From positions 544,001-608,000 of the forward strand of contig CAWBWI010000001.1 in assembly GCA_963792585.1 (NCBI GenBank): DNA of 64,000 nt. Reading direction: 5' to 3'. The position numbers and the translations under genes were made by a program. Numbering within the stretch: the first letter of the stretch is position 1; each line of letters begins with the position of its first letter. Origin of the DNA: Candidatus Eiseniibacteriota bacterium. Its GTDB lineage: Bacteria; Eisenbacteria; RBG-16-71-46; CAIMUX01; VGJL01. Shown one piece after another: positions 5,026 through 18,364 of this stretch. A model generated the notes under the pieces. It was not told the DNA's origin, ran no database searches, and saw only the letters and a list, made by a program, of their open reading frames with translations.

Positions 5026-6996
5026 TTGAAAGCGTTCCGCCGCGCGCTCCCCGCGACCGTCCTGAGTCTCCTGCTTCTCGCTACATGTTCGAACGATGAC
5101 AACCCAGCCGGTCCATCCGATGGCGTGATGCGGCTCCACGGGACCGTCGTATCGTCGGACGGACCCCTGAGCGGTCTCACCGTCAAGGTGGATAGCCGGG
5201 ACGGGAGTTTGCGGACATGGTTGCTGACGGACCCACAGGGCGCGTACGAGGCCTTCCTTCCGACCGGGCGTTACGTTCTCTCACTGAATTCCGGCCAGGG
5301 CGGCACCGTCTGGTACGCGTCGACAGGTCTATCCTATCGATCGAACAACGCCGAGACTGTCGTGGTCACTGCGGGCCAGAGCGATCTGCGCGCCGATTTT
5401 CGGTTGGGGCATCTCCGGCTCACCCTTCGAACCCCATTCCACGAAGACCACACCTACAGCTCTTGCTCCTTCTATGACGACGTGGGTGGTCTGGAAGTTG
5501 GCCGTGATGATGGGCAAGCGATGGACAGCCTCGTTGTCTTCGATCTTCCGGCCATGGTCCCCGGTCGATACTTCCTGCGCATCGAGATGCAGCAGCGGTA
5601 CTTCTGGTTCCCGCACACGCTGGATTCGGGCAACGCTGAAGCGATCGAGGTGGGCGCCCTTCAGACCTCAACCCAGAGCGACACGCTCGGCGAGCCGGCC
5701 CACGTGAAGGGCGTCGTTGTGGGGCCCTGGATGGACTTTGCAGACCACAGCATCAGAATTGGACTTCTCGCTCCCGACATGCACGACATTGCGATGGCCT
5801 ACCTCGAGGACGACGGCCGGTTCGACATTCCGGTCTTGGCGGAGGGCTCCGTTCGCCTTGTGGTCGACCAGGGCTCGGTGATGATCTGGCTCGGGGGCAC
5901 TGGATTCGCGGATGCCGATCCGCTCCCGGTGACCGCCGGCGCCGTGGTCGATGTCGGCTCGATTCAAACCCACGGCATCGTCTGCCGACTCGTGGGCGAT
6001 CCGCAGTGGCGGATGGACTCCTGGCGGTGCCTGCTCGTGGGCCCGGATCGGCGCGAATTCGTCAACGTGCGCAGGGCCGCAACGGAGGGACTCGGGATCA
6101 TCCCGCTGGAGGCGCCAGGATCGTACCGACTGGAGGCAACCGGGTATGGATCATCGGACTGGAGGCCGCAGTGGTACGACCGGGCGACGTCCGAGTCCAC
6201 GGCGACGGAGATCGTCGTCGATGATGCCGTGGCGCCCGCCGCAATCGATCTCCAGCTGGAGCGCGGCGGATCGATCTCCGGTCGCGTGGTCCTCGAGGAT
6301 GGCTCTCCTGTCACGAACGCGCTGATGCTCGCGCAACTCGAGACATTCTCTGACAACGCACGATGGCAAACGGATGCCGAGGGCGCATTCCGGCTGAGGG
6401 GACTCCCCGATGGGCCGATCCGATTTGCGGTTGTCTACGAAGGGGAGCGCGTCTGGTATCCCGGAACCCTGACCGAAGCGGAGGCCGAGCCGATCGAGAT
6501 CGTCGATGCGGACGACCGGTCCGGCTTCGAACTCGTCGTTCCCCCCCTCGAAACGCCTGCGTTCCTCTATGTCGGCGTCAATGCGTGCAAGCCCTGCCAC
6601 ATGGGGGAAGCGAAGGGACGGATCTGGGAGACGTGGCAGGCGACCGCGCACGCCAGCGCCTATGACGACCTGGATCACGACCATCGGGAGAATCCGAGCT
6701 GCCTCGGGTGCCACACGACCGGCTATGGCGACAGTATCGCCCCCGGCCGGGACTGGTCGGACCTTCTCGCGGTCCAGTGCGAGGCCTGCCACGGCCCTGG
6801 CAGCGAGTACAAGTCTCTGAGTGTCATGAAAGTCCCGGAACGGGCACAGGAGTTGGGCCTCATCCGTCCCAACGAGGGCACCTGCCTGCCGTGCCACACC
6901 TCGACCCTGCCTCGGGACTGCTGGGGCGCCAGCAATGAGCATCCCGTCTTCGATTATGTCCAGGCGCTGTCCGCGATCGCGCACAACATGCCTTGA
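5026..6996 (+). CDS. Lipoprotein with carboxypeptidase-regulatory-like beta-sandwich repeats and C-terminal tetraheme c554-like cytochrome domain
   Basis: TTG start, lipobox LLATC; four CxxCH (CKPCH, CLGCH, CEACH, CLPCH); YVG..ACKPCH and VQCEACHGPGSEY. Confidence 0.8.
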   Translation: MKAFRRALPATVLSLLLLATCSNDDNPAGPSDGVMRLHGTVVSSDGPLSGLTVKVDSRDGSLRTWLLTDPQGAYEAFLPTGRYVLSLNSGQGGTVWYASTGLSYRSNNAETVVVTAGQSDLRADFRLGHLRLTLRTPFHEDHTYSSCSFYDDVGGLEVGRDDGQAMDSLVVFDLPAMVPGRYFLRIEMQQRYFWFPHTLDSGNAEAIEVGALQTSTQSDTLGEPAHVKGVVVGPWMDFADHSIRIGLLAPDMHDIAMAYLEDDGRFDIPVLAEGSVRLVVDQGSVMIWLGGTGFADADPLPVTAGAVVDVGSIQTHGIVCRLVGDPQWRMDSWRCLLVGPDRREFVNVRRAATEGLGIIPLEAPGSYRLEATGYGSSDWRPQWYDRATSESTATEIVVDDAVAPAAIDLQLERGGSISGRVVLEDGSPVTNALMLAQLETFSDNARWQTDAEGAFRLRGLPDGPIRFAVVYEGERVWYPGTLTEAEAEPIEIVDADDRSGFELVVPPLETPAFLYVGVNACKPCHMGEAKGRIWETWQATAHASAYDDLDHDHRENPSCLGCHTTGYGDSIAPGRDWSDLLAVQCEACHGPGSEYKSLSVMKVPERAQELGLIRPNEGTCLPCHTSTLPRDCWGASNEHPVFDYVQALSAIAHNMP

Positions 6997-7054
6997 GGCG
7001 CGCGTCAGGGTCGCGTCTGGGCGCAGGAGATCGCCGAAACGGAGTTACGTCGAC

Positions 7055-7774
7055 ATGAGACCGTTTCTCGTAGCAATGATTGCGGCGGGTGTCGCGCTTG
7101 CTGCACCTGTCCTTGCGGCCAACCCGACCCTCACGGCCGGGGGCGGCGGCACGCCCAACCTCGTCGAGTCCGGCCGCAACGTCTGCTGGAGCGAGCCAGC
7201 GGATCTCAATGGTTTCATTGCGGGTTCGGAAGTGATCAGGACGCTTGGTCTCGAAAGCGAGGTTGCCAACGATTTCACGCTCACCCCCGACGCCACGATC
7301 ATCCTTGCCCGCTGGTGGGGTGGGTACATGAACACGAACGACTGCGACGACACACATGTTGCGCAGACCTGGAATCTCCGCTTCTACGAAGACACGGGTT
7401 GCGTACCGGGCAACGTCCTCGCCGAATACGTCGTTCCCGACTACGCTGGGGAAACATTCATCGCCTGTCAAGGTGGGTGGTACCCGATCTTCATGTACGA
7501 GGGGGCCGTTTCCTTCCCAGTGGCGGCCAACACCCGTTACTGGTTCAGCGCGCAAGCTGGGGATCACACATTCCCGCCCCAGGTCGGGCGTCTCGAGGCG
7601 GGCACCATCATCGATTGTCCCTCAGGGTTCAGGAGCGCCTACTTCTCTTTCCCGGATTGGGTATTTCACGACGATGTCATCTGGGAGGAGCACGACTTCA
7701 GCCAGGAGTTCGAGTGCGGCGAGACTCCGACCAAGGACGCGACGTGGGGCGCCGTCAAGGCGCTATATCGGTAG
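7055..7774 (+). CDS. Secreted Cys-rich protein with C-terminal TWGAVKALYR tail (paralog 2)
   Basis: Signal peptide MRPFLVAMIAAG...VLA; tandem paralog of 7896. Confidence 0.85.
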   Translation: MRPFLVAMIAAGVALAAPVLAANPTLTAGGGGTPNLVESGRNVCWSEPADLNGFIAGSEVIRTLGLESEVANDFTLTPDATIILARWWGGYMNTNDCDDTHVAQTWNLRFYEDTGCVPGNVLAEYVVPDYAGETFIACQGGWYPIFMYEGAVSFPVAANTRYWFSAQAGDHTFPPQVGRLEAGTIIDCPSGFRSAYFSFPDWVFHDDVIWEEHDFSQEFECGETPTKDATWGAVKALYR

Positions 7775-7895
7775 CCGCGTTCTGGTGGTACGCTCGTTCT
7801 CGCAGATTCCGTGGGTCATCGAATTGTGGATCGAACGTGAAAGTGCGCCGGTTGTCCGCGGCAATGATGGTGTCCGCGTTGAAGGGAGCGTCCCG

Positions 7896-8615
7896 ATGAT
7901 CAAACGACTCCTATTGGTGACAGCGACCCTCGTGAGTGTATCCAGTATGCCGACCCTCGCGGCGAACCCAACGAACTCGGCCGGGGGCGGCGGCACGCCC
8001 AACGTCGTCGAGTCCGGCCGCAACGTCTGCTGGAGCGAGCCGGCGGACCTCGAGGGGCTGATCGGTTCGTCGGAAGTGATCGGGCAGTTCGATCTCGAAA
8101 CGGAGATTGCGAACGACTTCGTCCTCAGCTCTGATGCAACCATCACTCTCGCTCGGTGGTGGGGTGGCTACTTCAACAACAACGGCTGCGGTGACGTCCA
8201 TGTCGCCCCGACATGGAATCTCGAGTTCTTCGACGACGGTGGCTGCACCCCCGTAAACGTCCTCGCGGAGTTCGTCATACCCGACTACGCGGGCGAGACA
8301 CTTGTCTACTGCCAGGCTGGCTACTACCCGATCTTCAAGTACGAGGGATCCATCTCTTTTCCGGCGACTGCCGACACCCGGTACTGGTTCGTCGCACAGG
8401 CAGGTGATCACCCCTTCCCGCCACAGGTCGGGCGTGTTGAAGCGGGCTTCATCACTGGATGCGACTCAGGGTTCCGGAGCATCTACTTCTCGTATCCGGA
8501 TTGGACCTTCATTGACGACGTCTTCGAGACGCATGACTGGAGCCAGGAGTTCGAGTGCGGCGAGACACCGACCAAGCATGCCACCTGGGGGGACATAAGG
8601 GCCCTATACCGATAG
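7896..8615 (+). CDS. Secreted Cys-rich protein with C-terminal TWGDIRALYR tail (paralog 3)
   Basis: AAGGGAG RBS, signal peptide MIKRLLLV...TLA; tandem paralog of 7055. Confidence 0.85.
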   Translation: MIKRLLLVTATLVSVSSMPTLAANPTNSAGGGGTPNVVESGRNVCWSEPADLEGLIGSSEVIGQFDLETEIANDFVLSSDATITLARWWGGYFNNNGCGDVHVAPTWNLEFFDDGGCTPVNVLAEFVIPDYAGETLVYCQAGYYPIFKYEGSISFPATADTRYWFVAQAGDHPFPPQVGRVEAGFITGCDSGFRSIYFSYPDWTFIDDVFETHDWSQEFECGETPTKHATWGDIRALYR

Positions 8616-8843
8616 ACGACGGGAATCCCCGTGAGCAAGAGGGAGACCGGTGCCACGAGGCTGAGTTAGGCGCCCCGTGGGGGAGCACCCCTTTCCCAGT
8701 CTCTACAGATCCCGTCCCGCCAACCCGGACGCCCCGGAAGCTCGAACGAGGATTTAGCCCTGGACCTCCGACACTGAAGCCGGGCACCAACCGGCCATGC
8801 CTCCGCCCGCCGCCCGACACGATCACCCCATCCCTTAAAACCC

Positions 8844-8889
8844 TTGCGCGAATATGTGCATATTGCTACGTTCATGCGCATACTATGCG
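8844..8889 (+). promoter_or_regulatory. Sigma70-like promoter of arg operon with candidate ArgR operator palindromes
   Basis: TTGCGC(8844)-17 bp-TACGTT(8867) with extended TG; palindromes AATATG-tg-CATATT (8851-8864) and CGCATA-c-TATGCG (8877-8889) in an AT-rich patch before argR. Confidence 0.6.
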
Positions 8890-8944
8890 GACACCCCCCG
8901 AAGGCACCGGGGGACACTTCCCAACCTATCAGGAGCGCAAGCAC

Positions 8945-9418
8945 ATGCCGAGCGGAACCGATCACTGGCGCGAGCGCCACGCAGCCATCGCGGAGATTCT
9001 CCGCGATGAGGTCATCCACAGCCAGAGCGAGTTGCTGCGCCAGTTGCGCAAGCGCAAGCACCGCGTGACCCAGCCCAGCATCTCCCGGGACCTCGCGGAA
9101 CTCGATGTCGTGAAGGTGGACGGCCGCTACGTTTTGCGGGAGTCGCTCGTTCCCCCCGAGCCGTCCCGTTCGGAGCTCGAGCAGGCGGCGGGTTTCGTGC
9201 GTTCGTTCGAACCGGCCGGTCCGAATCTGGTGGTCCTGAAGACGCCTCCGGGCGCGGCCTCCCAGGTGGCGATCGCGATCGATGGCGAGGGTTGGCAGGA
9301 GGTTGTCGGAACGATCGCCGGCGATGACACGGTCTTCATCGCCACGCGGGGACGCTCCCAGCAGGCCAGGCTCGAGACCCTTCTCAAGCAGGTCATGGGC
9401 GGAATCGTCCATGCTTGA
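8945..9418 (+). CDS. argR: Arginine repressor
   Basis: SQSELL, VTQPSISRDL, GTIAGDDT motifs. Confidence 0.95.
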   Translation: MPSGTDHWRERHAAIAEILRDEVIHSQSELLRQLRKRKHRVTQPSISRDLAELDVVKVDGRYVLRESLVPPEPSRSELEQAAGFVRSFEPAGPNLVVLKTPPGAASQVAIAIDGEGWQEVVGTIAGDDTVFIATRGRSQQARLETLLKQVMGGIVHA

Positions 9419-10613
9419 GACCATCGTCCTCGCCTTCAGCGGCGGCCTCGACACGTCGTTCTGCATCCCCTGGCTGAGGGAGCGCTACGGCGCGGATGTC
9501 GTCACCGTGACGGTGGACACCGGCGGGCTCGACGACGCAGCCCGCGCCGACCTCGAACGACGCGCGGTGGCTCTCGGCGCGGTTTCCCACAGGCTGGTCG
9601 ATGCCCGCCGGTCGTTCTTCGATGAGACTCTCGCGTACCTGGTGATGGGCAACGTGCTGCGCGGCAATTTGTATCCCCTGTGCGTCGGGGCGGAGCGCAG
9701 CCTGCAGGCGCGCGTGGTCGCGGAAGTCGCAACGGAACTCGGGGCACGTGCGGTCGCGCACGGCAGCACGGCGGCCGGGAACGACCAGGTCCGCTTCGAG
9801 GTCGCCCTACGTACCCTTGCGCCCGAGCTCGAGGTTCTGGCGCCGATCCGCGACGAGGGGCTCTCCCGCGCTCGAGAGGTTCAGTGGCTTGCCGAGCGGG
9901 GCGTCGAGTGGCCACACGCGCGTGCCGACTATTCCGTCAACAGCGGCCTGTGGGGCACCACGATCGGTGGCCGCGAGACCAATGACTCCATCGAGTCGAT
10001 TCCCGAGGAGGCGTGGATGCTCACGCGCGGCGCCTTCGAAGCCCCGCAGCCGCCATGCACGATCAAGATTGGTTTCCAGTGCGGGAGGCCGGCCACGCTC
10101 GACGGCACGAGCCTCGACCCGGTGGCGCTGGTGGAGCATCTCAATGCATTGGCGGGGCGCTATGGGGTCGGCCGTGGGATTCATCTGGGGGACACCGTCC
10201 TCGGTCTCAAGGGCCGGGTCGCGTTCGAGGCGCCGGCAGCGACGCTGCTGATCGCGACCCACCGCGAGTTGGAGAAGCTCGTCCTCACCGGTCGGCAGCA
10301 GCGTCTGAAAGACCAGATTGCGCCGCTCTACGGCGACCTCGTTCACGAAGGTCAGTTCCTCGAGCCCGCTTGCCGGGACATCGAGGCGCTCTTCCGACGC
10401 TCGCAGGAGCGGGTGACCGGGGACGTGCGCGTGCAGCTGCGGCCGGGTTCGGCCTTCGTACTGGGCGCGTCCTCTCCCTGGTCCCTCAAGGCCGCCTCCT
10501 CGGGGGTATACGGCGAGGCGGCGGGGGAGTGGAGCGCGGCGGACGCCCGCGGATTCTCGCGCCTCCTCGCGCTTCCGGGGATGCTCCACGCACGGGCGGG
10601 ACGTCGGGCGTGA
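9411..10613 (+). CDS. argG: Argininosuccinate synthase
   Basis: LAFSGGLDTS, AHGSTAAGNDQVRFE, GLKGRVAFEAP. Confidence 0.95.
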   Translation: MLETIVLAFSGGLDTSFCIPWLRERYGADVVTVTVDTGGLDDAARADLERRAVALGAVSHRLVDARRSFFDETLAYLVMGNVLRGNLYPLCVGAERSLQARVVAEVATELGARAVAHGSTAAGNDQVRFEVALRTLAPELEVLAPIRDEGLSRAREVQWLAERGVEWPHARADYSVNSGLWGTTIGGRETNDSIESIPEEAWMLTRGAFEAPQPPCTIKIGFQCGRPATLDGTSLDPVALVEHLNALAGRYGVGRGIHLGDTVLGLKGRVAFEAPAATLLIATHRELEKLVLTGRQQRLKDQIAPLYGDLVHEGQFLEPACRDIEALFRRSQERVTGDVRVQLRPGSAFVLGASSPWSLKAASSGVYGEAAGEWSAADARGFSRLLALPGMLHARAGRRA

Positions 10614-11686
10614 AGCAAGTCCTGCTGGACAAGATCGGCTCCGTCACATCGAACTGCCGGCTCTCGCGCGAAGTCCGGCTGGGCCCCGATATCCCCGTGG
10701 TGGAAGGCGGCGTGATCGCCGTCCGCGTGCTGGGAGCGAAGAGCACCTACAACGAGCTCGAACTGCCCTCGGGGCGGATGTCGAAGGTCAAGCCGGGCGA
10801 CGTGGTGGCGGGCGCCCTCGGTCACCGCAAAGCGCTCCTTGGCTACTCCGGGAGAATGCCGGAGTCCGTCCAACCGGGGGATTCGATCCACATCCTCAAC
10901 ACGGGCGGCGTGCTGGGAATCTGCGACGGGATCAACCCCGATCTCGGACGCCCGTTCGAGTGTCAGGTCCTCGGCCAGGTGCTGCACTTCCCGTACCTCG
11001 GCGAACGCGTCGGCCTGCCGGCCCACATTTCCCAGGGCGCGATCCCGATGGCGGAGACGCTGGATGTTCGCGGTGTGCCGGTGGTCGCGATCGTCGGTTC
11101 GTGCATGAACGCAGGGAAGACCCAGGCCGCTTGCGCTCTGATCCAGCAGTTCGCGCACCGCGGACTCAAGGTCGCGGCGGGGAAGGCGACGGGAGTCTCG
11201 CTCCGGCGCGACGTCCTGGCGATGGAGGATGCCGGCGCACGCCTCACGATGATCTTCACGGACCTGGGGATTGTGACGACGACGCCCGAGGTGGCGCCCG
11301 CAGCTGCGCGCACGCTTCTGACGCGACTCGCTGCGGATCGGCCGGATCTGATCGTCCTGGAGCTGGGCGACGGGTTGCTCGGTCTCTATGGTGTCCAGGC
11401 CATTCTCGGCGACGCGGCCCTGCGCGCGTCGTTCGGAGCGATCGTGCTCGCGGCGAACGATCCGGTGGCCGCGTGGGGCGGTGTGCGTCTGCTTGCCGAG
11501 CGGCACCAGCTCGCCACCACCGTCGTGACCGGTCCGGCGACCGACAACTCCGCCGGTACGCGCGTGATTTCTTCCGAGACCAACGTCCCGGCGTTCAACG
11601 CGCGCACAGACCCTGGGAAACTCGCCGAGGCCGTGCTCGCGAAGCTGCCCGCTATGTTCCGCGACGCGGAGTCGCCGGATGCATGA
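10610..11686 (+). CDS. DUF1611/DgcN-like P-loop protein embedded in arg operon
   Basis: GTG start overlapping argG stop; ELELPSGR, VGSCMNAGKT, GKATG, DAGA...FTDLG, IVLELGDGL motifs. Confidence 0.75.
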   Translation: MKQVLLDKIGSVTSNCRLSREVRLGPDIPVVEGGVIAVRVLGAKSTYNELELPSGRMSKVKPGDVVAGALGHRKALLGYSGRMPESVQPGDSIHILNTGGVLGICDGINPDLGRPFECQVLGQVLHFPYLGERVGLPAHISQGAIPMAETLDVRGVPVVAIVGSCMNAGKTQAACALIQQFAHRGLKVAAGKATGVSLRRDVLAMEDAGARLTMIFTDLGIVTTTPEVAPAAARTLLTRLAADRPDLIVLELGDGLLGLYGVQAILGDAALRASFGAIVLAANDPVAAWGGVRLLAERHQLATTVVTGPATDNSAGTRVISSETNVPAFNARTDPGKLAEAVLAKLPAMFRDAESPDA

Positions 11687-12746
11687 GGGGCGGATCCCGG
11701 TTCTCCTGTTGGGAGGATCCGGCTATGTCACGGGGGAGCTCTTGCGGCTGCTGGCGGCGCATCCACGCTTCGAGGTACGTGCCGTGGCCTCGACCAGCCG
11801 TGATGGTGGGGTGACCGAGGCTTTCCCGCACCTCGCCGGTTCCAGCCTCGACGGTCTCCGCTTCTGCCCGTTCGAGGCTCTGGGGAGTTTCTTTGAGCGT
11901 GGCGCACGCTGCGGGGTGATCGCGGCCACACCCCACGGTGTGACGGCCAGGCTCCTCGATGGTTTGTTGTCGGAAGCGGAGGCGAAGGGCGCGTCTGTAC
12001 GGGCGGTCGATCTCTCCGCGGACTTCCGTTACGCCGATCCGGCGGACTTTGCCGACGTCTATGGCCAAGCGCACGGCGCGCCCGCCCGCGCGACCTCGTT
12101 CGTCTGCGCGGTGCCCGAGCACTTCACGGGTGTGCCCGCCCGGCACGCGGCGCAGCCAGGGTGCTTCACGACCGCGGTCGTGCTCGCCGCCTACCCGATG
12201 TTCGCGCTCGGTCTCGCAGAGCCGGAAGTGTTCGTCGCCGCGGTGACCGGCAGCTCGGGCAGCGGCCGCACACCGTCCGCGGGCACGCACCACCCCGAGA
12301 GAAGGAGCAGCATGTATGCGTACAACCCGCTGACGCACCGCCACGAAACGGAAATGCGGCGGCTGCTGGCGCCGGCCGCGGGGGGTGTCGAGCCGGACGT
12401 GCAGTTCGTGCCGCACTCCGGACCTTTCGTGCGGGGCATCCACGCGACGCTGCGGCTCACCCTGAAGGAACCAATCCCGGCCGAAGACGTGGGGGAAGGC
12501 CTGCGGGCATTCTACGAGGGGGCCCCGTTCGTCGGCGTCACGACGACCCCGCCAAGGTTGACCGAAGTGACCGGGACGAACCGCTGCCGCATCGGCGTCG
12601 CCACGCGCGGGACGACCGTGGTTCTGACCTCCGTCATCGACAACCTCGTCAAGGGTGCGGCCGGGGGTGGGATCCAGTGGCTCAATCGCCTGCACCATCT
12701 CCCTGACGACATGGGTCTAGCCGTCACGGGCCTGGGGTGGTATTGA
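11679..12746 (+). CDS. argC: N-acyl-gamma-glutamyl-phosphate reductase
   Basis: GGSGYVTGELLRLL, DLSADFR, PGCFTTA, IDNLVKGAAG. Confidence 0.95.
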   Translation: MHEGRIPVLLLGGSGYVTGELLRLLAAHPRFEVRAVASTSRDGGVTEAFPHLAGSSLDGLRFCPFEALGSFFERGARCGVIAATPHGVTARLLDGLLSEAEAKGASVRAVDLSADFRYADPADFADVYGQAHGAPARATSFVCAVPEHFTGVPARHAAQPGCFTTAVVLAAYPMFALGLAEPEVFVAAVTGSSGSGRTPSAGTHHPERRSSMYAYNPLTHRHETEMRRLLAPAAGGVEPDVQFVPHSGPFVRGIHATLRLTLKEPIPAEDVGEGLRAFYEGAPFVGVTTTPPRLTEVTGTNRCRIGVATRGTTVVLTSVIDNLVKGAAGGGIQWLNRLHHLPDDMGLAVTGLGWY

Positions 12747-12747
12747 C

Positions 12748-13908
12748 GTGGCGCTCTCGCAGACCGCAACCGTGAGACCGCCGGTGCTCTTCGACGTCTA
12801 CGATCAGATGCCGCTGCGTCCCGTGCGCGGTCATGGGGCTTGGCTCGAGACTGGCGATGGGACGCGGTGGCTCGACTTCTACGGCGGGCACGCCGTGGCG
12901 CTCCTGGGTTACGGCCACCCGCGGCTTCTGGCCGCCCTCGAGGCCCAGGCGGGGACGCTCTTCTTCCAGAGCAATGCGGTCCCACTCGCCGTGCGCGAGC
13001 GCGCCGCCGAGCGCCTGCTCCGCTTCGGCCCCGCCGGGCTCGATCGCGTCTTCTTCGTCAACTCCGGCGCAGAGGCGAACGAGAATGCGCTTCGGCTCGC
13101 CTTTCGAACCACCGGGCGGCGGCAGGTGGTTGCGGTGGAGGGCGCCTTCCACGGGAGGACCGCGGCCACCGCGGCGGTCACCGCTGGGAGCGCAAGGTGG
13201 TACGCCTTTCCCGAGCGACCCTTCCCCGTGACCTTCGTGCCCTTCGAGGATGCGGGCGCGCTCGCCGACGCGGTCTCCACGGAGACCGCTGCGGTGATCG
13301 TCGAACCCGTGCAGGGGGTCGCCGGCGCGCGCGCCATGTCGACAGCGTTCCTTTCCGCCGCCCGTGACCTGACCGCCGCGTGCGGCGCACTCCTGATCTT
13401 CGACGAGGTCCAGTGCGGCATGGGCCGTACCGGGACGCCGTTCGCCGCGCAACACCACGGGATCCTGCCCGACGTGCTCACCGTCGCCAAGGGGATCGCC
13501 GGCGGATTCCCGGCCGGTGCGGTGCTGGCGAGCGAGCATGTCGCGACCTGCATGGGGCGGGGCGATCTCGGCACGACCTTCGGCGGCGGCCCGCTTGCCG
13601 CCGCGCTTGTCGAGACCGTGATCGACATCATCGAATCCGAGGACCTCCTGTCCCAGGTCCGGCGCCTCTCGGAACGGTTGCGCCGCGAGTGCGTGGTCGG
13701 CCCCGTCACCGCGGTGCAGGGGCTCGGCTTCCTGCTCGGTCTGCGCACCACGAGACCCGCGAAGGAGGTCGTGGGTGCCCTGAACGCGCGCCACATCGTT
13801 GCCGGCGGCAGCGCGGACGCGAACGTCGTGCGGCTCCTGCCGCCCCTGATTCTCGAGGACGGGCACGTCGACCTTCTTGTCGAAGCCCTGAAGGAGATCC
13901 CCGCATGA
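12748..13908 (+). CDS. argD: Acetyl/succinylornithine aminotransferase
   Basis: Class III PLP motifs NSGAEANE, FHGRT, IFDEVQCGMGRTG, VAKGIAGG. Confidence 0.92.
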   Translation: MALSQTATVRPPVLFDVYDQMPLRPVRGHGAWLETGDGTRWLDFYGGHAVALLGYGHPRLLAALEAQAGTLFFQSNAVPLAVRERAAERLLRFGPAGLDRVFFVNSGAEANENALRLAFRTTGRRQVVAVEGAFHGRTAATAAVTAGSARWYAFPERPFPVTFVPFEDAGALADAVSTETAAVIVEPVQGVAGARAMSTAFLSAARDLTAACGALLIFDEVQCGMGRTGTPFAAQHHGILPDVLTVAKGIAGGFPAGAVLASEHVATCMGRGDLGTTFGGGPLAAALVETVIDIIESEDLLSQVRRLSERLRRECVVGPVTAVQGLGFLLGLRTTRPAKEVVGALNARHIVAGGSADANVVRLLPPLILEDGHVDLLVEALKEIPA

Positions 13909-14915
13909 AGCAGTTTCTGGACCTCGATGACCTGTCCGACGCGCAGCTCGAGAGTGTGCTGGCGCGGGCCCGCCACCTGGAGGGGGAGCCGCACAGCGAA
14001 GCGCTCCGGGGCAAGGTCGTCGGCCTTCTTTTCATGAATCCATCCCTGCGAACTCTTGCCTCGATGCAGGCCGGGATCGGGCAGCTGGGGGGCACGAGCT
14101 TCGTGATCAGCCCCGGAGCGGGGAGCTGGCTCCTGGAGACGGGCGACGGCGCCGTCATGGACGGCGCGGCGGCCGAGCACATCCGGGAGGCGATTCCCGT
14201 GCTCGCCCAGTATGCGGACGCGCTCGGCGTTCGCTGTTTCGCGCGGGGGGTGGATCTCGCCGAGGACCTGGAAGACGGGGTGATCAAGAAGATGGCCGCA
14301 CTGGCGCCCGTGCCCTTCATCAACCTCGAATCGGCGATCTCGCACCCATGTCAGGCGCTCGCGGACTGGAAGACGCTCGACGATTGCGGGGTCCCACGAC
14401 GCGGCGGACGGTTCGTGCTCTCGTGGGCCTATCATCCCAAGCCGCTCGCCTACGCGGTCCCCGCGTCCGTTCTCGTCATGGCTGCGCGGAGGGGGATGCA
14501 GGTGACCGTGCTGCGCCCGGATGGCTATGAACTGCCGGAATCCGTGATGACCCGAGCGCGCGCTGTCGCGATCCGATCCGGAGGCTCCGTGGAGGAAACG
14601 TCGGACCGGCGCACGGGCATGGCCGGGGCAGACGTTCTCTACGCGAAGTCCTGGGGAGCGGTGAACGCCTACGGTCGGCCCGAGGTCGATGCCCTGCAGC
14701 GGGCGGGGCTTGGGGACTGGTGCGTGAGGGAGTCATGGTTTGCGGGCGCCGCCCCGAACGCCCGGTTCATGCACTGCCTGCCCGTGCGGCGCAACGTCAA
14801 GGTGGCCGACGAGGTGCTCGATGGTCCGCGCAGTGTGGTCGTTCGTGAGGCAGGAAACCGCCTGCACGTCCAGAAGGCTCTCATGATGGAGATGCTGGTG
14901 GAGGAGGCCCGATGA
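13905..14915 (+). CDS. argF': N-acylornithine carbamoyltransferase (AOTCase/SOTCase type, ArgF')
   Basis: NPSLRT, MDGAAAEH, HPCQ, WAYHPKPL, HCLPVRRN motifs typical of N-acylornithine transcarbamylases rather than canonical OTC. Confidence 0.9.
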   Translation: MKQFLDLDDLSDAQLESVLARARHLEGEPHSEALRGKVVGLLFMNPSLRTLASMQAGIGQLGGTSFVISPGAGSWLLETGDGAVMDGAAAEHIREAIPVLAQYADALGVRCFARGVDLAEDLEDGVIKKMAALAPVPFINLESAISHPCQALADWKTLDDCGVPRRGGRFVLSWAYHPKPLAYAVPASVLVMAARRGMQVTVLRPDGYELPESVMTRARAVAIRSGGSVEETSDRRTGMAGADVLYAKSWGAVNAYGRPEVDALQRAGLGDWCVRESWFAGAAPNARFMHCLPVRRNVKVADEVLDGPRSVVVREAGNRLHVQKALMMEMLVEEAR

Positions 14916-15874
14916 TTGGTTCCAGTGATCGCGAAACAACTCTGTTGGGCCTGAGGCGTGCGCTGCCCTACGTCCGGCTGTTCCGAGGCCGCACGTTCGT
15001 GGTCAAGCTCGGAGGGACCGCGTGCGGCGATCCCGAAGTGCTCTCGCGCGTCGTGGAGCAGATCGACATGTTGGTCACCTTTGGGATCCACATCGTGCTC
15101 GTGCACGGGGGAGGCGCCCAGACCACGACGCTATCGCGGAAGCTCGGGATCGAGGCGTGCTTCATCGACGGGCGACGCGTCACACCGCCCGGCGCACTGG
15201 AAGCCGCGGTGATGGCGATCGCGGGACAGGTGAACATGGGGATCCTCGCCGCGTGCCGCGCGCAGGGTCTCCCCGCAATCGGCCTTTCGGGTGTCGATGC
15301 GGCGCTGATTCGCGCCGTCAGGCGTCCCATCAAGTCGGAGGACCGGGGCGCCGGGCCCCAGGCGATCGACTATGGAGAGGTCGGCGATGTCACCGGGATC
15401 GAGGAGAATGTCCTCGTCCGGTTGGTCGATGCTGGGTTTCTCCCGGTCGTTGCCTCGCTCGCGGCGGATGACCAGGGGCATGTGCTCAATGTCAACGCCG
15501 ATACTGCCGCTTCCCGGATCGCCACGGCGCTCGGCGCGGAGAAGCTGATCTTCCTGACCGACACCCCGGGAATCCTGGCCGATCGGGACGATCCGGGTTC
15601 GGTCATCAGTTATGTCGACCTGCAGGGTCTGCAGGAACTCGAGGCGAGTGGGGCCCTTGCCGGCGGGATGCTGCCAAAGACGGATGCCGTGCGCAGTGCG
15701 CTCACCGGCGGCGTCGGCCGTGTGCACGTAGTAGGGCACGCAGGACCGGCGAGCCTGCTCGCCGAGGTGTTCACCAACGAGGGGGCGGGGACGTTGGTCG
15801 TGCGCAGCACCCGCGAGCTCCTTCCTGCCGAGCACGACGCGCCGGGTTCCGCAGTGGCCGGGGGCGTGGTGTGA
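14912..15874 (+). CDS. argB: N-acylglutamate kinase
   Basis: VVKLGG, VHGGG, NVNADTAA, GGMLPK; no fused GNAT domain. Confidence 0.93.
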   Translation: MIGSSDRETTLLGLRRALPYVRLFRGRTFVVKLGGTACGDPEVLSRVVEQIDMLVTFGIHIVLVHGGGAQTTTLSRKLGIEACFIDGRRVTPPGALEAAVMAIAGQVNMGILAACRAQGLPAIGLSGVDAALIRAVRRPIKSEDRGAGPQAIDYGEVGDVTGIEENVLVRLVDAGFLPVVASLAADDQGHVLNVNADTAASRIATALGAEKLIFLTDTPGILADRDDPGSVISYVDLQGLQELEASGALAGGMLPKTDAVRSALTGGVGRVHVVGHAGPASLLAEVFTNEGAGTLVVRSTRELLPAEHDAPGSAVAGGVV

Positions 15875-16962
15875 CCGATACCGAACTTCTCGCGCTTCAC
15901 CGCTCGATGATCGAGATTCCATCCCTATCCGGGGATGAGGGTGCGTTGTGTGGGGCGCTGATCGAGTGGCTTGCGGATCGTGGGCTCGTCGCGAAGCGGC
16001 TCGGCAACAATCTCTTCGCCGCGGTAGGCAGCGGGCCGACGATTGCGCTCAACTCCCACCTCGATACCGTGCCCGCGTCCTCGGGGTGGACCCGAGGTCC
16101 GCACCAGGCGGCTGTCGTGGACGGCAAAGTCCACGGACTCGGCAGCAACGACGCGAAGGCTGCGGCCGCCTGCATGGTCACCGCATTCGCGCGTTTGGCT
16201 CCCAGTGTGACACGGCTCGGCATTCGCCTGCTTCTCACGCTTTCCGCCGAGGAAGAGGTGGGCGGACGCGGCAGTGAGGTCCTCGTTCCGGAGCTGGACC
16301 GACTCGGCCTCGCGCCGGAGGCCGTGATCGTGGGGGAGCCGACGGGACTCGATATCGCGATCGCGCAAAAGGGGCTGCTCGTGCTCGAGCTGCGCACGGT
16401 CGGTCGCGCCTGCCACGCAGCGAACGGCCGGTCCCTCGACGCTCCCAACGCGCTGAGCCGCCTCGCCCGGGGACTGGTGGCGCTCGATGCGGTCGAGTTC
16501 GGCGGGCCGCACCCCCTGCTCGGGCCGGTCACGGTGGAACCGACGATGGTGAAGGGCGGGATCGCCCGGAACATGATTCCGCCCGAGGCGAGTTGCCTGA
16601 TCGATGTCCGCACCAATCCGGCGCCCGACCAGCGCGCGACCTACGAGAGGCTCGCGGCGGTGGTGGCCGAGGGCGAGTTAGTGTTGATCTCCGACCGGTT
16701 GAGGCCCTATGAAATCGACGTCGCCCACCCTCTGCTCGCCGCGGCCCGTTCGGCGCGACCGCAGGCGGCCCTCTTCGGCTCGCGCGGACTGTCCGACCTG
16801 GTGTTCTTCCACGCTGCCGGCATCAAGGTCGGACCCGGAAGGACCGAGCGCTCGCACACGCCGGATGAGTTCGTCTTCGAGAGCGAGGTCATCGAGGGAG
16901 CGCAATTCTATGAGCGGGCCGTTCGCGCCTGGGCGGCTTCGCTGAAGGGGGCGCTGGCATGA
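15871..16962 (+). CDS. argE: M20-family deacylase (acetylornithine/acylcitrulline deacylase)
   Basis: NSHLDTV, GLGSNDAK, EEEVGG, GEPT, SHTPDE; position in arg operon. Confidence 0.85.
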   Translation: MTDTELLALHRSMIEIPSLSGDEGALCGALIEWLADRGLVAKRLGNNLFAAVGSGPTIALNSHLDTVPASSGWTRGPHQAAVVDGKVHGLGSNDAKAAAACMVTAFARLAPSVTRLGIRLLLTLSAEEEVGGRGSEVLVPELDRLGLAPEAVIVGEPTGLDIAIAQKGLLVLELRTVGRACHAANGRSLDAPNALSRLARGLVALDAVEFGGPHPLLGPVTVEPTMVKGGIARNMIPPEASCLIDVRTNPAPDQRATYERLAAVVAEGELVLISDRLRPYEIDVAHPLLAAARSARPQAALFGSRGLSDLVFFHAAGIKVGPGRTERSHTPDEFVFESEVIEGAQFYERAVRAWAASLKGALA

Positions 16963-18143
16963 GCCGCCTGTGGGACCGCGGCGAGCCCCTCGAGCGATTC
17001 GTTCTCTACTACACTGCGGGGGAGGATCACGTCCTCGACGAACGTCTCGTCGCCTATGACGTGCGCGCCTCGGCCGCCCACGCCGCGATGCTCCACACGT
17101 GCGGCTATCTCGACGACAACGACCACGCGGTTCTCCAGCGGGCGCTCGAGGAAATCGGTTCGGCTCATGCGCGCGGGGAGTGGCAGATCGCGCTCGAGGA
17201 AGAGGACGTTCACTCCGCGCTCGAGAACCGTCTGGTCGCAACCGCTGGAGACGTGGGGCGCCGGATCCACCTGGGCCGTTCGCGCAACGACCAGGTGCTC
17301 GCCGCGCTACGCCTCTACCTGCTCGATGCCCTCGATGCGCTGGCCCTCTCCGCCGACGCCGTCGCCGCCGCGCTGGACGACCTGGCGGACCGGCATGGCC
17401 CCCTGCCCATGCCCGGGTACACCCACCAACAACAGGCGATGCCGACGACCCTCGCGCTCTGGTGCGGCGGATACGCGGCCGAGCTGCGCGACGACGGCGA
17501 GGGGCTGCGTTCGGCGCGCCGACGGGCGCAGCAGAACCCGCTTGGCTCGGCCGCCGGCTACGGCGTTCCAGGAATCCAGATCGACCGCGAGGAGACGCGG
17601 CGGGCCCTCGGGTTCGCATCGATCCACCAGCCGGTCACCGCCGTCCAGCTCTCGCGGGGCAAAGCCGAGGCATCGGCGCTCTTCGAGGCGGCTCTCTTGG
17701 GCCAGGACCTCGGACGACTTGCCGCGGAGCTCTGTCTCTTCTCCACGGCAGAGTTCGCATTCGTCCTGCTGCCCCCGGAGCTGACGACCGGCTCCTCGAT
17801 GCTGCCGCAGAAGCGCAATCCGGACCTCTTCGAACTGGCGAGAGGGCGTGGCGGAGAGGCGGTGGCCGCACTCAATGAAGTGCTGAGTGTATTCGCCAAG
17901 CTGCCATCCGGCTACCACCGCGACCTCCAGCTGATCAAGAAGCCTCTCTTCCGCGGGCTCGACGCCGTCGGTGCGACCGCTCACCTCTTCGTGGAAGCCC
18001 TGCCCCGGATCTCCTTCGACTCTGCGCGGCTCGCGGCCGCGATCGATCCGTCCTCACGCATGGCGGAGCGGGCGAACCGAGTGGTCGTCGACGAGGGGAT
18101 CCCGTTTCGGGAGGCCTACCGGCGCGTGAAGGAGGAGGGGTAA
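16959..18143 (+). CDS. argH: Argininosuccinate lyase
   Basis: GRSRNDQV, MPGYTH, TGSSMLPQKRNPD. Confidence 0.95.
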   Translation: MSRLWDRGEPLERFVLYYTAGEDHVLDERLVAYDVRASAAHAAMLHTCGYLDDNDHAVLQRALEEIGSAHARGEWQIALEEEDVHSALENRLVATAGDVGRRIHLGRSRNDQVLAALRLYLLDALDALALSADAVAAALDDLADRHGPLPMPGYTHQQQAMPTTLALWCGGYAAELRDDGEGLRSARRRAQQNPLGSAAGYGVPGIQIDREETRRALGFASIHQPVTAVQLSRGKAEASALFEAALLGQDLGRLAAELCLFSTAEFAFVLLPPELTTGSSMLPQKRNPDLFELARGRGGEAVAALNEVLSVFAKLPSGYHRDLQLIKKPLFRGLDAVGATAHLFVEALPRISFDSARLAAAIDPSSRMAERANRVVVDEGIPFREAYRRVKEEG

Positions 18144-18278: not shown

Positions 18279-18352
18279 GCGCCCGTAGCTCAGCTGGATA
18301 GAGCGTTTGCCTCCGGAGCAAAAGGTCACAGGTTCGAATCCTGTCGGGCGTA
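18279..18352 (+). tRNA. tRNA-Arg(CCG)
   Basis: Acceptor GCGCCCG/CGGGCGT, D-arm TAGCTCAGCTGGATAGAGC, anticodon stem TTTGC-CT CCG GA-GCAAA, T-loop GGTTCGAATCC; CCA not encoded. Confidence 0.97.
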
Positions 18353-18364
18353 CAGAAAACGAAG

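Follow-up and report, generated by a model that had tools for sequence, protein, structure and literature searches.

The window analyzed here, a stretch of 64,000 nt from the genome of a Candidatus Eiseniibacteriota bacterium (G000; contig CAWBWI010000001.1, positions 544,001 to 608,000), carries nine coupled genes in the order argR-argG-X-argC-argD-argF'-argB-argE-argH, running from 8945 to 18143 (Table 1). The subject of this work is X, the gene at 10610 to 11686 on the forward strand, between argG and argC. Successive genes overlap or abut, with junction gaps of -8, -4, -8, +1, -4, -4, -4, and -4 nt from argR to argH, and eight of the nine can be assigned by Pfam and NCBIfam; X is the exception. 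Moreover, neither a GNAT, an argA, nor an argJ was found inside the operon by a Pfam and NCBIfam scan of the window proteins, and neither ArgB nor ArgH carries a fused domain. Thus, a preliminary description of the DNA, which had reported a coupled arginine operon complete except for the enzyme that makes N-acylglutamate, is confirmed on these points.

Table 1. Features of the arginine operon and of gene X in the window
Feature	Positions	Strand	Basis
ARG-box-like palindrome, 3-nt-spacer variant, upstream of argR	8877..8889	n/a	Pattern search
argR, arginine repressor	8945..9418	+	PF01316 and PF02863 above cut-off
argG, argininosuccinate synthase	9411..10613	+	TIGR00032, 317 vs 268 bits
X	10610..11686	+	Open reading frame; model pLDDT 96.9; fold search; gene context
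Walker A of X, G163-T171, intact GKT	11096..11122	+	G169 and K170 in 77/77; T171 in 76/77 (Ser in 1)
K192 of X, aligned with E. coli dethiobiotin synthetase Lys37	11183..11185	+	77/77; weak alignment
D201 of X, aligned with dethiobiotin synthetase Asp54	11210..11212	+	75/77, Glu in 2; weak alignment
E251 of X, Walker B-like, aligned with dethiobiotin synthetase Glu115	11360..11362	+	77/77; weak alignment
argC	11679..12746	+	TIGR01850, 262 vs 234 bits
argD, N-acylornithine aminotransferase	12748..13908	+	PF00202; best PRK01278, 338 bits, below 372 cut-off
argF', N-acylornithine carbamoyltransferase	13905..14915	+	PRK04523, 393 vs 288
argB, short N-acylglutamate kinase, 320 aa	14912..15874	+	TIGR00761 above cut-off; AA_kinase only, no NAT
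argE-like M20 deacylase	15871..16962	+	PF01546/PF07687; below all NCBIfam cut-offs
argH, argininosuccinate lyase, 394 aa	16959..18143	+	TIGR00838 above cut-off; Lyase_1 only, no GNAT fusion

Gene X and its family

X starts with GTG and encodes 358 aa, and its GC content by codon position (0.72/0.49/0.84) is that of coding DNA. A longer open reading frame of 557 aa from 10013 was rejected as an upstream extension that overlaps argG, since homologues begin at 10610. The source genome carries a single copy of X.

To which family X belongs is less simple than its position. A Pfam scan of X returned only MobB, below cut-off (E 7.8e-5), and gave no match to PF07755 (DUF1611), which likewise had no match at E <= 0.01 anywhere in the source genome. 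Two of 63 homologues passed PF07755 narrowly (25.1 and 25.5 vs 25 bits), over about 37 P-loop residues only. We conclude that X lies outside Pfam DUF1611 and that the label "DUF1611-type" in the preliminary description, which had suggested a profile comparison as a check, was overstated. X also had no match to the dethiobiotin synthetase (BioD) family models AAA_26 and TIGR00347, contained no GNAT or ArgJ domain by Pfam, NCBIfam, structure model, or fold search, and retrieved nothing at E <= 1 from a sequence search of the PDB. Profile searches with X found matches at the level of the P-loop only.

Homologues of X are nonetheless numerous: 6,572 were found among 8,000 candidates scored, the X family forms 1,162 clusters at E <= 1e-10, and a scan of GTDB genomes confirmed at least 582 relatives. 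The best 120 homologues are 69 to 100% identical to X, and named entries are nearly all "hypothetical"; X-related clusters of the ESM Atlas are automatically named DUF1611-like or hypothetical and share no Pfam family. The best 80 GTDB relatives, the loci of which were examined, span Acidobacteriota, Myxococcota, Planctomycetota, Eisenbacteria, Bdellovibrionota, and Gammaproteobacteria. In a quick tree, 35 arg-operon sequences grouped together, apart from the paralogues described below, and the X of the window shared a branch with Steroidobacteraceae proteins (support of 100), to which it is 57 to 63% identical and which occupy the same operon slot. Unusual forms were discounted: P0181 (626 aa; an X-family and an amino-acid kinase domain; one cluster, four contigs) has stand-alone relatives, most of 13 longer forms join X to its neighbor argG or argC, and P0136 resembles a frameshifted artifact.

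Linkage to arginine genes and known first-step enzymes

X is linked to arginine genes far above chance. Arg genes were present in all 80 of the best loci, in agreement with the conserved linkage that the preliminary description had anticipated, and argG lay upstream of X in 71. Downstream, argC was found within 400 nt in 77 loci, the three misses being two contig ends and one locus in which argC is slightly farther away. Four Steroidobacteraceae loci (L057, L067, L069, and L076) and L194 keep only X-argC-argB, that is, the start of the pathway. Because profile scores were bimodal, we call relatives at E <= 1e-100 core X and those at E of about 1e-52 to 1e-70 paralogues, a cut set after the split had been seen. 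In the phylum of genome G085, all 12 core loci fetched lie in arg clusters of three gene orders, and X is always directly 5' of argC. Operons of large genomes (L188 to L193) read argF'-B-E-H-G-X-C with a divergent argR and have no argD within 19 kb.

Known first-step enzymes were sought with markers for the ArgB-NAT fusion (PF00696 plus PF04768), long ArgA (TIGR01890), and ArgJ (PF01960). These proteins supply N-acylglutamate, the step predicted for X, with folds unrelated to that of X, and no genome searched for them had one alongside core X. In three pooled samples totaling 333 genomes, core X was found in 115 and ArgJ in 86, with an overlap of 0, which is the kind of anticorrelation that the preliminary description had proposed as a check. 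Among 81 genomes of the window's own phylum, searched for X, argC, and ArgJ, 45 had argC, 8 had core X, and 30 had ArgJ; X and ArgJ never coincided, and all 8 X genomes had argC. In 151 genomes of the G085 phylum, where ArgJ was the first-step marker searched, core X (40) and ArgJ (56) again did not overlap. The order of genome G081 (101 genomes) had no long ArgA and no ArgJ but had core X in 67, argC in 89, and a NAT domain in 23, and each of the 89 argC genomes had either X (67) or NAT (22), never both. Of the 22 X-less argC loci in that order, 20 were fetched, and all 20 carry an ArgB-NAT fusion in a Xanthomonas-like gene order, whereas ArgB was short in all 62 X loci in which it was found. 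Those X-less operons (L107 to L126) have no separate GNAT beside ArgB-NAT, and argD is nearby in only 1 of the 20.

The source genome (5.4 Mb, seven contigs) is 84% complete, and within that limit no ArgJ, no NAT domain, and no long ArgA was found; the sole TIGR01890 match was argB itself, below cut-off. The preliminary description had named a canonical argA or argJ as the finding that would count against its proposal, and neither was found. Several observations nonetheless weigh against assigning the first step to X. The source genome has 32 GNAT matches, and a synthase of the short GNAT type is difficult to rule out, although all 30 matches scanned stayed below the ArgA-type cut-offs (PRK07757 came closest, 37 vs 154 bits). 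Moreover, core X and ArgJ are both absent from 7 of the 45 argC genomes of the same phylum, and thus the lack of a known ArgA says little on its own; a crude gene call of the arg clusters of those seven genomes (L099 to L105) gave no obvious first-step gene. Finally, the sampled genomes are kin and represent few independent events, and we therefore attach no probability to the exclusion, as a small number of operon exchanges may account for it. Even so, linkage and exclusion taken together make it very probable that X fills the first step of arginine synthesis. Thus, the part of the preliminary description that saw in X a non-GNAT replacement for the usual glutamate N-acylating enzyme is supported, with arg context in 80 of 80 loci and exclusion of both ArgJ and ArgB-NAT.

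X might instead act at another arginine step, for instance by transferring or cleaving off the succinyl group of N-succinylcitrulline as ArgE or ArgJ would, with N-acylglutamate supplied by a small GNAT encoded elsewhere. The unassigned GNATs of the source genome would allow this; moreover, only 40 of the 80 X loci showed argE, and Steroidobacteraceae operons lack it, as S1B Text of PMC13759103 also reports. In about half of the loci, the window included, X and argE nevertheless share an operon, and X alternates with the NAT domain in the G081 order, where 19 of the 20 X-less operons fetched have argE. We consider this explanation improbable. X could also be a noncatalytic or accessory NTPase, such as a regulator, a metal or cluster chaperone, or a scaffold, that is carried with this operon type. 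Signal recognition particle (SRP) GTPases, HypB, UreG, and ApbC do appear at Z of 12 to 15 in the fold search, and SRP GTPases also head the Foldseek results. X is, however, as conserved as the best-conserved enzymes of the operon (median of 64% identity to the window protein, against 52 to 64% for ArgB to ArgH, in related loci chosen by X similarity), and an accessory role would leave the first step unfilled in all 67 X genomes of the G081 order sample. We consider an accessory role similarly improbable.

The first-step role is already in print as a prediction and hence is not new. GapMind 2026 (PMC13759103) predicts the family of A0A127FCT3 to be an alternative N-succinylglutamate synthase, and its passages on that family describe an unannotated gene that clusters with argR, G, C, D, F', B, E, and H and has remote similarity to PDB 7XRJ, a succinyl-type ArgF', and exclusion with other ArgA. 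That description fits X in every feature tested (arg cluster, ArgF' residue, no long ArgA). Orthology of X with A0A127FCT3 rests on family and context, the two being compared by description. In the passages concerned, exclusion was tested against Pseudomonas ArgA only and ATP chemistry is not discussed, although the literature was not searched specifically for an ATP-dependent succinylglutamate ligase. The window operon, for its part, keeps argE. A literature search for DUF1611 together with arginine found nothing. To this prediction the window contributes one more member, encoded in a complete operon, together with evidence of exclusion from ArgJ and ArgB-NAT genomes and a residue-level case for an ATP ligase. 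With core X in 115 of the 333 genomes sampled from three groups, X would close a gap in the pathway of many bacteria, most of them uncultured but some in culture.

Acyl group and candidate chemistry of X

Which acyl group X would transfer is indicated by ArgF'. Ala90 of the window ArgF' (codon 14172 to 14174) aligns with Glu92 of the Xanthomonas N-acetylornithine carbamoyltransferase in an alignment to 3kzc and 3l02, and the best PDB match of the window protein, 3l02, has Ala at the same position. All 61 X loci (of 80) in which position 92 could be read have Ala (52), Val (7), or Ser (2), whereas all 18 NAT loci read have Glu, such that NAT operons have an acetyl-type and X operons a succinyl-type ArgF'. 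According to a rule that S1B Text of PMC13759103 cites, the succinyl type is marked by Ala, Pro, Ser, or Val at position 92, and therefore X operons should use N-succinyl intermediates. If X does fill the first step, its donor is very probably a succinyl compound, and the acetyl or succinyl group that the preliminary description had left as a choice narrows to the latter. By the same token, the ArgE-like M20 deacylase is likely an N-succinylcitrulline desuccinylase. An N-succinyl product may not pass the acetyl-type enzymes of E. coli, and complementation of an argA mutant could thus mislead.

How X might acylate glutamate depends on the nature of its P-loop. The AlphaFold model of X (pLDDT 96.9, pTM 0.93) has a mostly beta N-terminal domain (residues 1 to 150) followed by a P-loop alpha/beta domain. 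Among the fold-search matches of the P-loop domain, the DUF1611 proteins TM0796 (2g0t) and Ava_3511 (2obn) came first (Z 16.8; root mean square deviation, 2.8 to 2.9; 180 to 182 residues aligned), followed by BioD (1a82; Z 16.0), CTP synthase (15.8), DgcN (7xrj; Z 15.6; deviation, 3.0; 181 aligned), and formyl-THF synthetase (13.4). DUF1611, BioD, CTP synthase, and DgcN are effectively tied, at 12 to 15% identity (15% for BioD). Foldseek ranked SRP GTPases and BioD first. Folded alone, the N-terminal domain (155 aa, pLDDT 86.9) matched none of 48,161 chains at Z >= 5, the best being Z 3.2 with no DUF1611 chain listed, and Foldseek gave nothing at E <= 0.001; these searches show neither a new fold nor a different fold. 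A homodimer prediction of X with ATP and Mg scored 0.34 against a mark of 0.42.

The residues of the nucleotide site are more discriminating than the fold. Conservation was scored over 77 X-family sequences, down to 27% identity (Table 1), and K170, T171, K192, D201, and E251 of X align, in weak alignments, with K15, T16, K37, D54, and E115 of BioD. In BioD, the P-loop Gly8-Thr16 binds nucleotide phosphates and Lys37 makes a salt bridge, as described in part of PMC8659263. Among 29 DUF1611 proteins from 31 loci, by comparison, the residue after the GK of Walker A is Lys (13), Arg (11), or Met (5) and never Ser or Thr, and DgcN has Met after the Walker A Lys and Arg at the K192 position. At the level of sequence, Walker A and K192 separate X from the DUF1611 proteins examined. 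BioD differs from X in its substrates, and X has an additional N-terminal domain of 150 residues and no BioD family match. Enzymes of the group of dethiobiotin synthetase, CTP synthase, and formyl-THF synthetase form C-N bonds via acyl-phosphates. Because X keeps BioD-type residues and the BioD class makes C-N bonds in this way, we rank an ATP ligase above a succinyl-CoA transferase.

We therefore favor, at a probability of roughly 0.5, the reading that X is a conserved P-loop protein acting as an ATP-dependent succinate:L-glutamate ligase that makes N-succinyl-L-glutamate; granted the first-step role, the ATP-ligase chemistry itself is somewhat probable. X would use ATP to activate free succinate as succinyl-phosphate and then transfer the succinyl group to the glutamate amino group. 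From N-succinylglutamate, the pathway would proceed through ArgB, ArgC, ArgD, and the succinyl-type ArgF' to N-succinylcitrulline, from which the M20 deacylase would free citrulline and succinate, and X could reuse the succinate. To our knowledge, known first-step enzymes use acyl-CoA or acetylornithine. If the reading is true, a ligase powered by ATP would add a new reaction to a core pathway of amino-acid synthesis and would offer a lead to function for a large unannotated P-loop family. In a wider and more tentative form, X may be a CoA-independent ligase of the BioD class that has its own beta-rich N-terminal domain, recaptures deacylase succinate, and occurs in at least six phyla, with its paralogues forming a wider family of ATP-dependent N-acyl ligases.

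Evidence against the ATP-ligase reading comes from the same comparisons. The full alignment of X with BioD, made with a single BioD sequence, is weak (probability of 3%, E 0.013), the DUF1611 profile matches X better (30%, E 5e-4), and DUF1611 proteins occupy the top structural rows. DgcN, a glutamate acyltransferase, is tied structurally. Finally, paralogues outside arg operons keep the same P-loop residues, which may thus characterize the family as a whole and not point to this reaction.

The DUF1611 profile match and the structural matches would suit a different enzyme, a DgcN-like succinyl-CoA:L-glutamate N-succinyltransferase in which the P-loop grips the phosphates of CoA. The transferase shares the context and exclusion evidence with the ligase, and X and DgcN have in common an A-T-G stretch after strand 2 and the Walker B Glu; if the role of X holds, they also have in common the N-acylation of glutamate. 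DgcN is reportedly a D-glutamate N-acetyltransferase that uses acetyl-CoA, and all characterized ArgA enzymes known to us use acyl-CoA. X, however, keeps the Walker A Thr and K192, both replaced in the DUF1611 set examined, and its N-terminal domain is predicted to be almost all beta, whereas that of DUF1611 is Rossmann-like. A succinyl-CoA transferase is the enzyme implied by the family passages of GapMind 2026 and by the preliminary description, and we regard it as possible but less so than the ligase. In particular, membership of X in a DUF1611/DgcN type of acyl-CoA transferase, as first proposed, is not supported, as X has no PF07755 match, DgcN ties with BioD, and the Walker A Thr is kept.

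Paralogues and features around the operon

Paralogues of X lie elsewhere. None of the 14 paralogue loci fetched belongs to an arg operon; they adjoin ABC exporters or an M20 peptidase. At L203, L206, and L207, an M20 peptidase gene and a flavin-reductase-like gene are coupled to a distant paralogue, which at L206 is additionally coupled to a gamma-glutamyl transpeptidase and a GCS2 (glutamate-cysteine-ligase-like) gene. The M20-linked loci are possibly modules that make and break N-acyl amino acids or peptides. In six others (L093, L095, L200, L201, L204, and L205), the neighboring ABC exporters are accompanied by phosphate-selective porins or by secreted proteins with a carboxypeptidase regulatory domain.

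An ARG-box-like palindrome lies upstream of argR. Its pattern, which was defined only after the window had been seen, is present in 32 of 65 argR upstream regions, against a mean of 0.125 in base shuffles. No sigma-70 promoter or terminator was found in 8600 to 9000. Just 5' of argR, positions 6935 to 8615 encode two tandem paralogous proteins of secreted type with common N- and C-terminal stretches.

Away from the operon, at about 848.5 to 849.4 kb of contig C1 (L208:4481-5428), the source genome encodes a canonical ornithine carbamoyltransferase (PRK00779, 420 vs 306 bits) adjoining hslU and near dapF, and the organism may thus use free ornithine as well. A tRNA-Arg(CCG) gene lies at 18279 to 18353 in the window, on the same strand and 135 nt 3' of argH; none was found after argH in 42 other X loci, and its position is probably a coincidence or an insertion boundary. 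In a Thermoanaerobaculia locus (L065:1337-1417), ARAGORN called a tRNA with anticodon CTA (tRNA-Pyl), a call that may be false.

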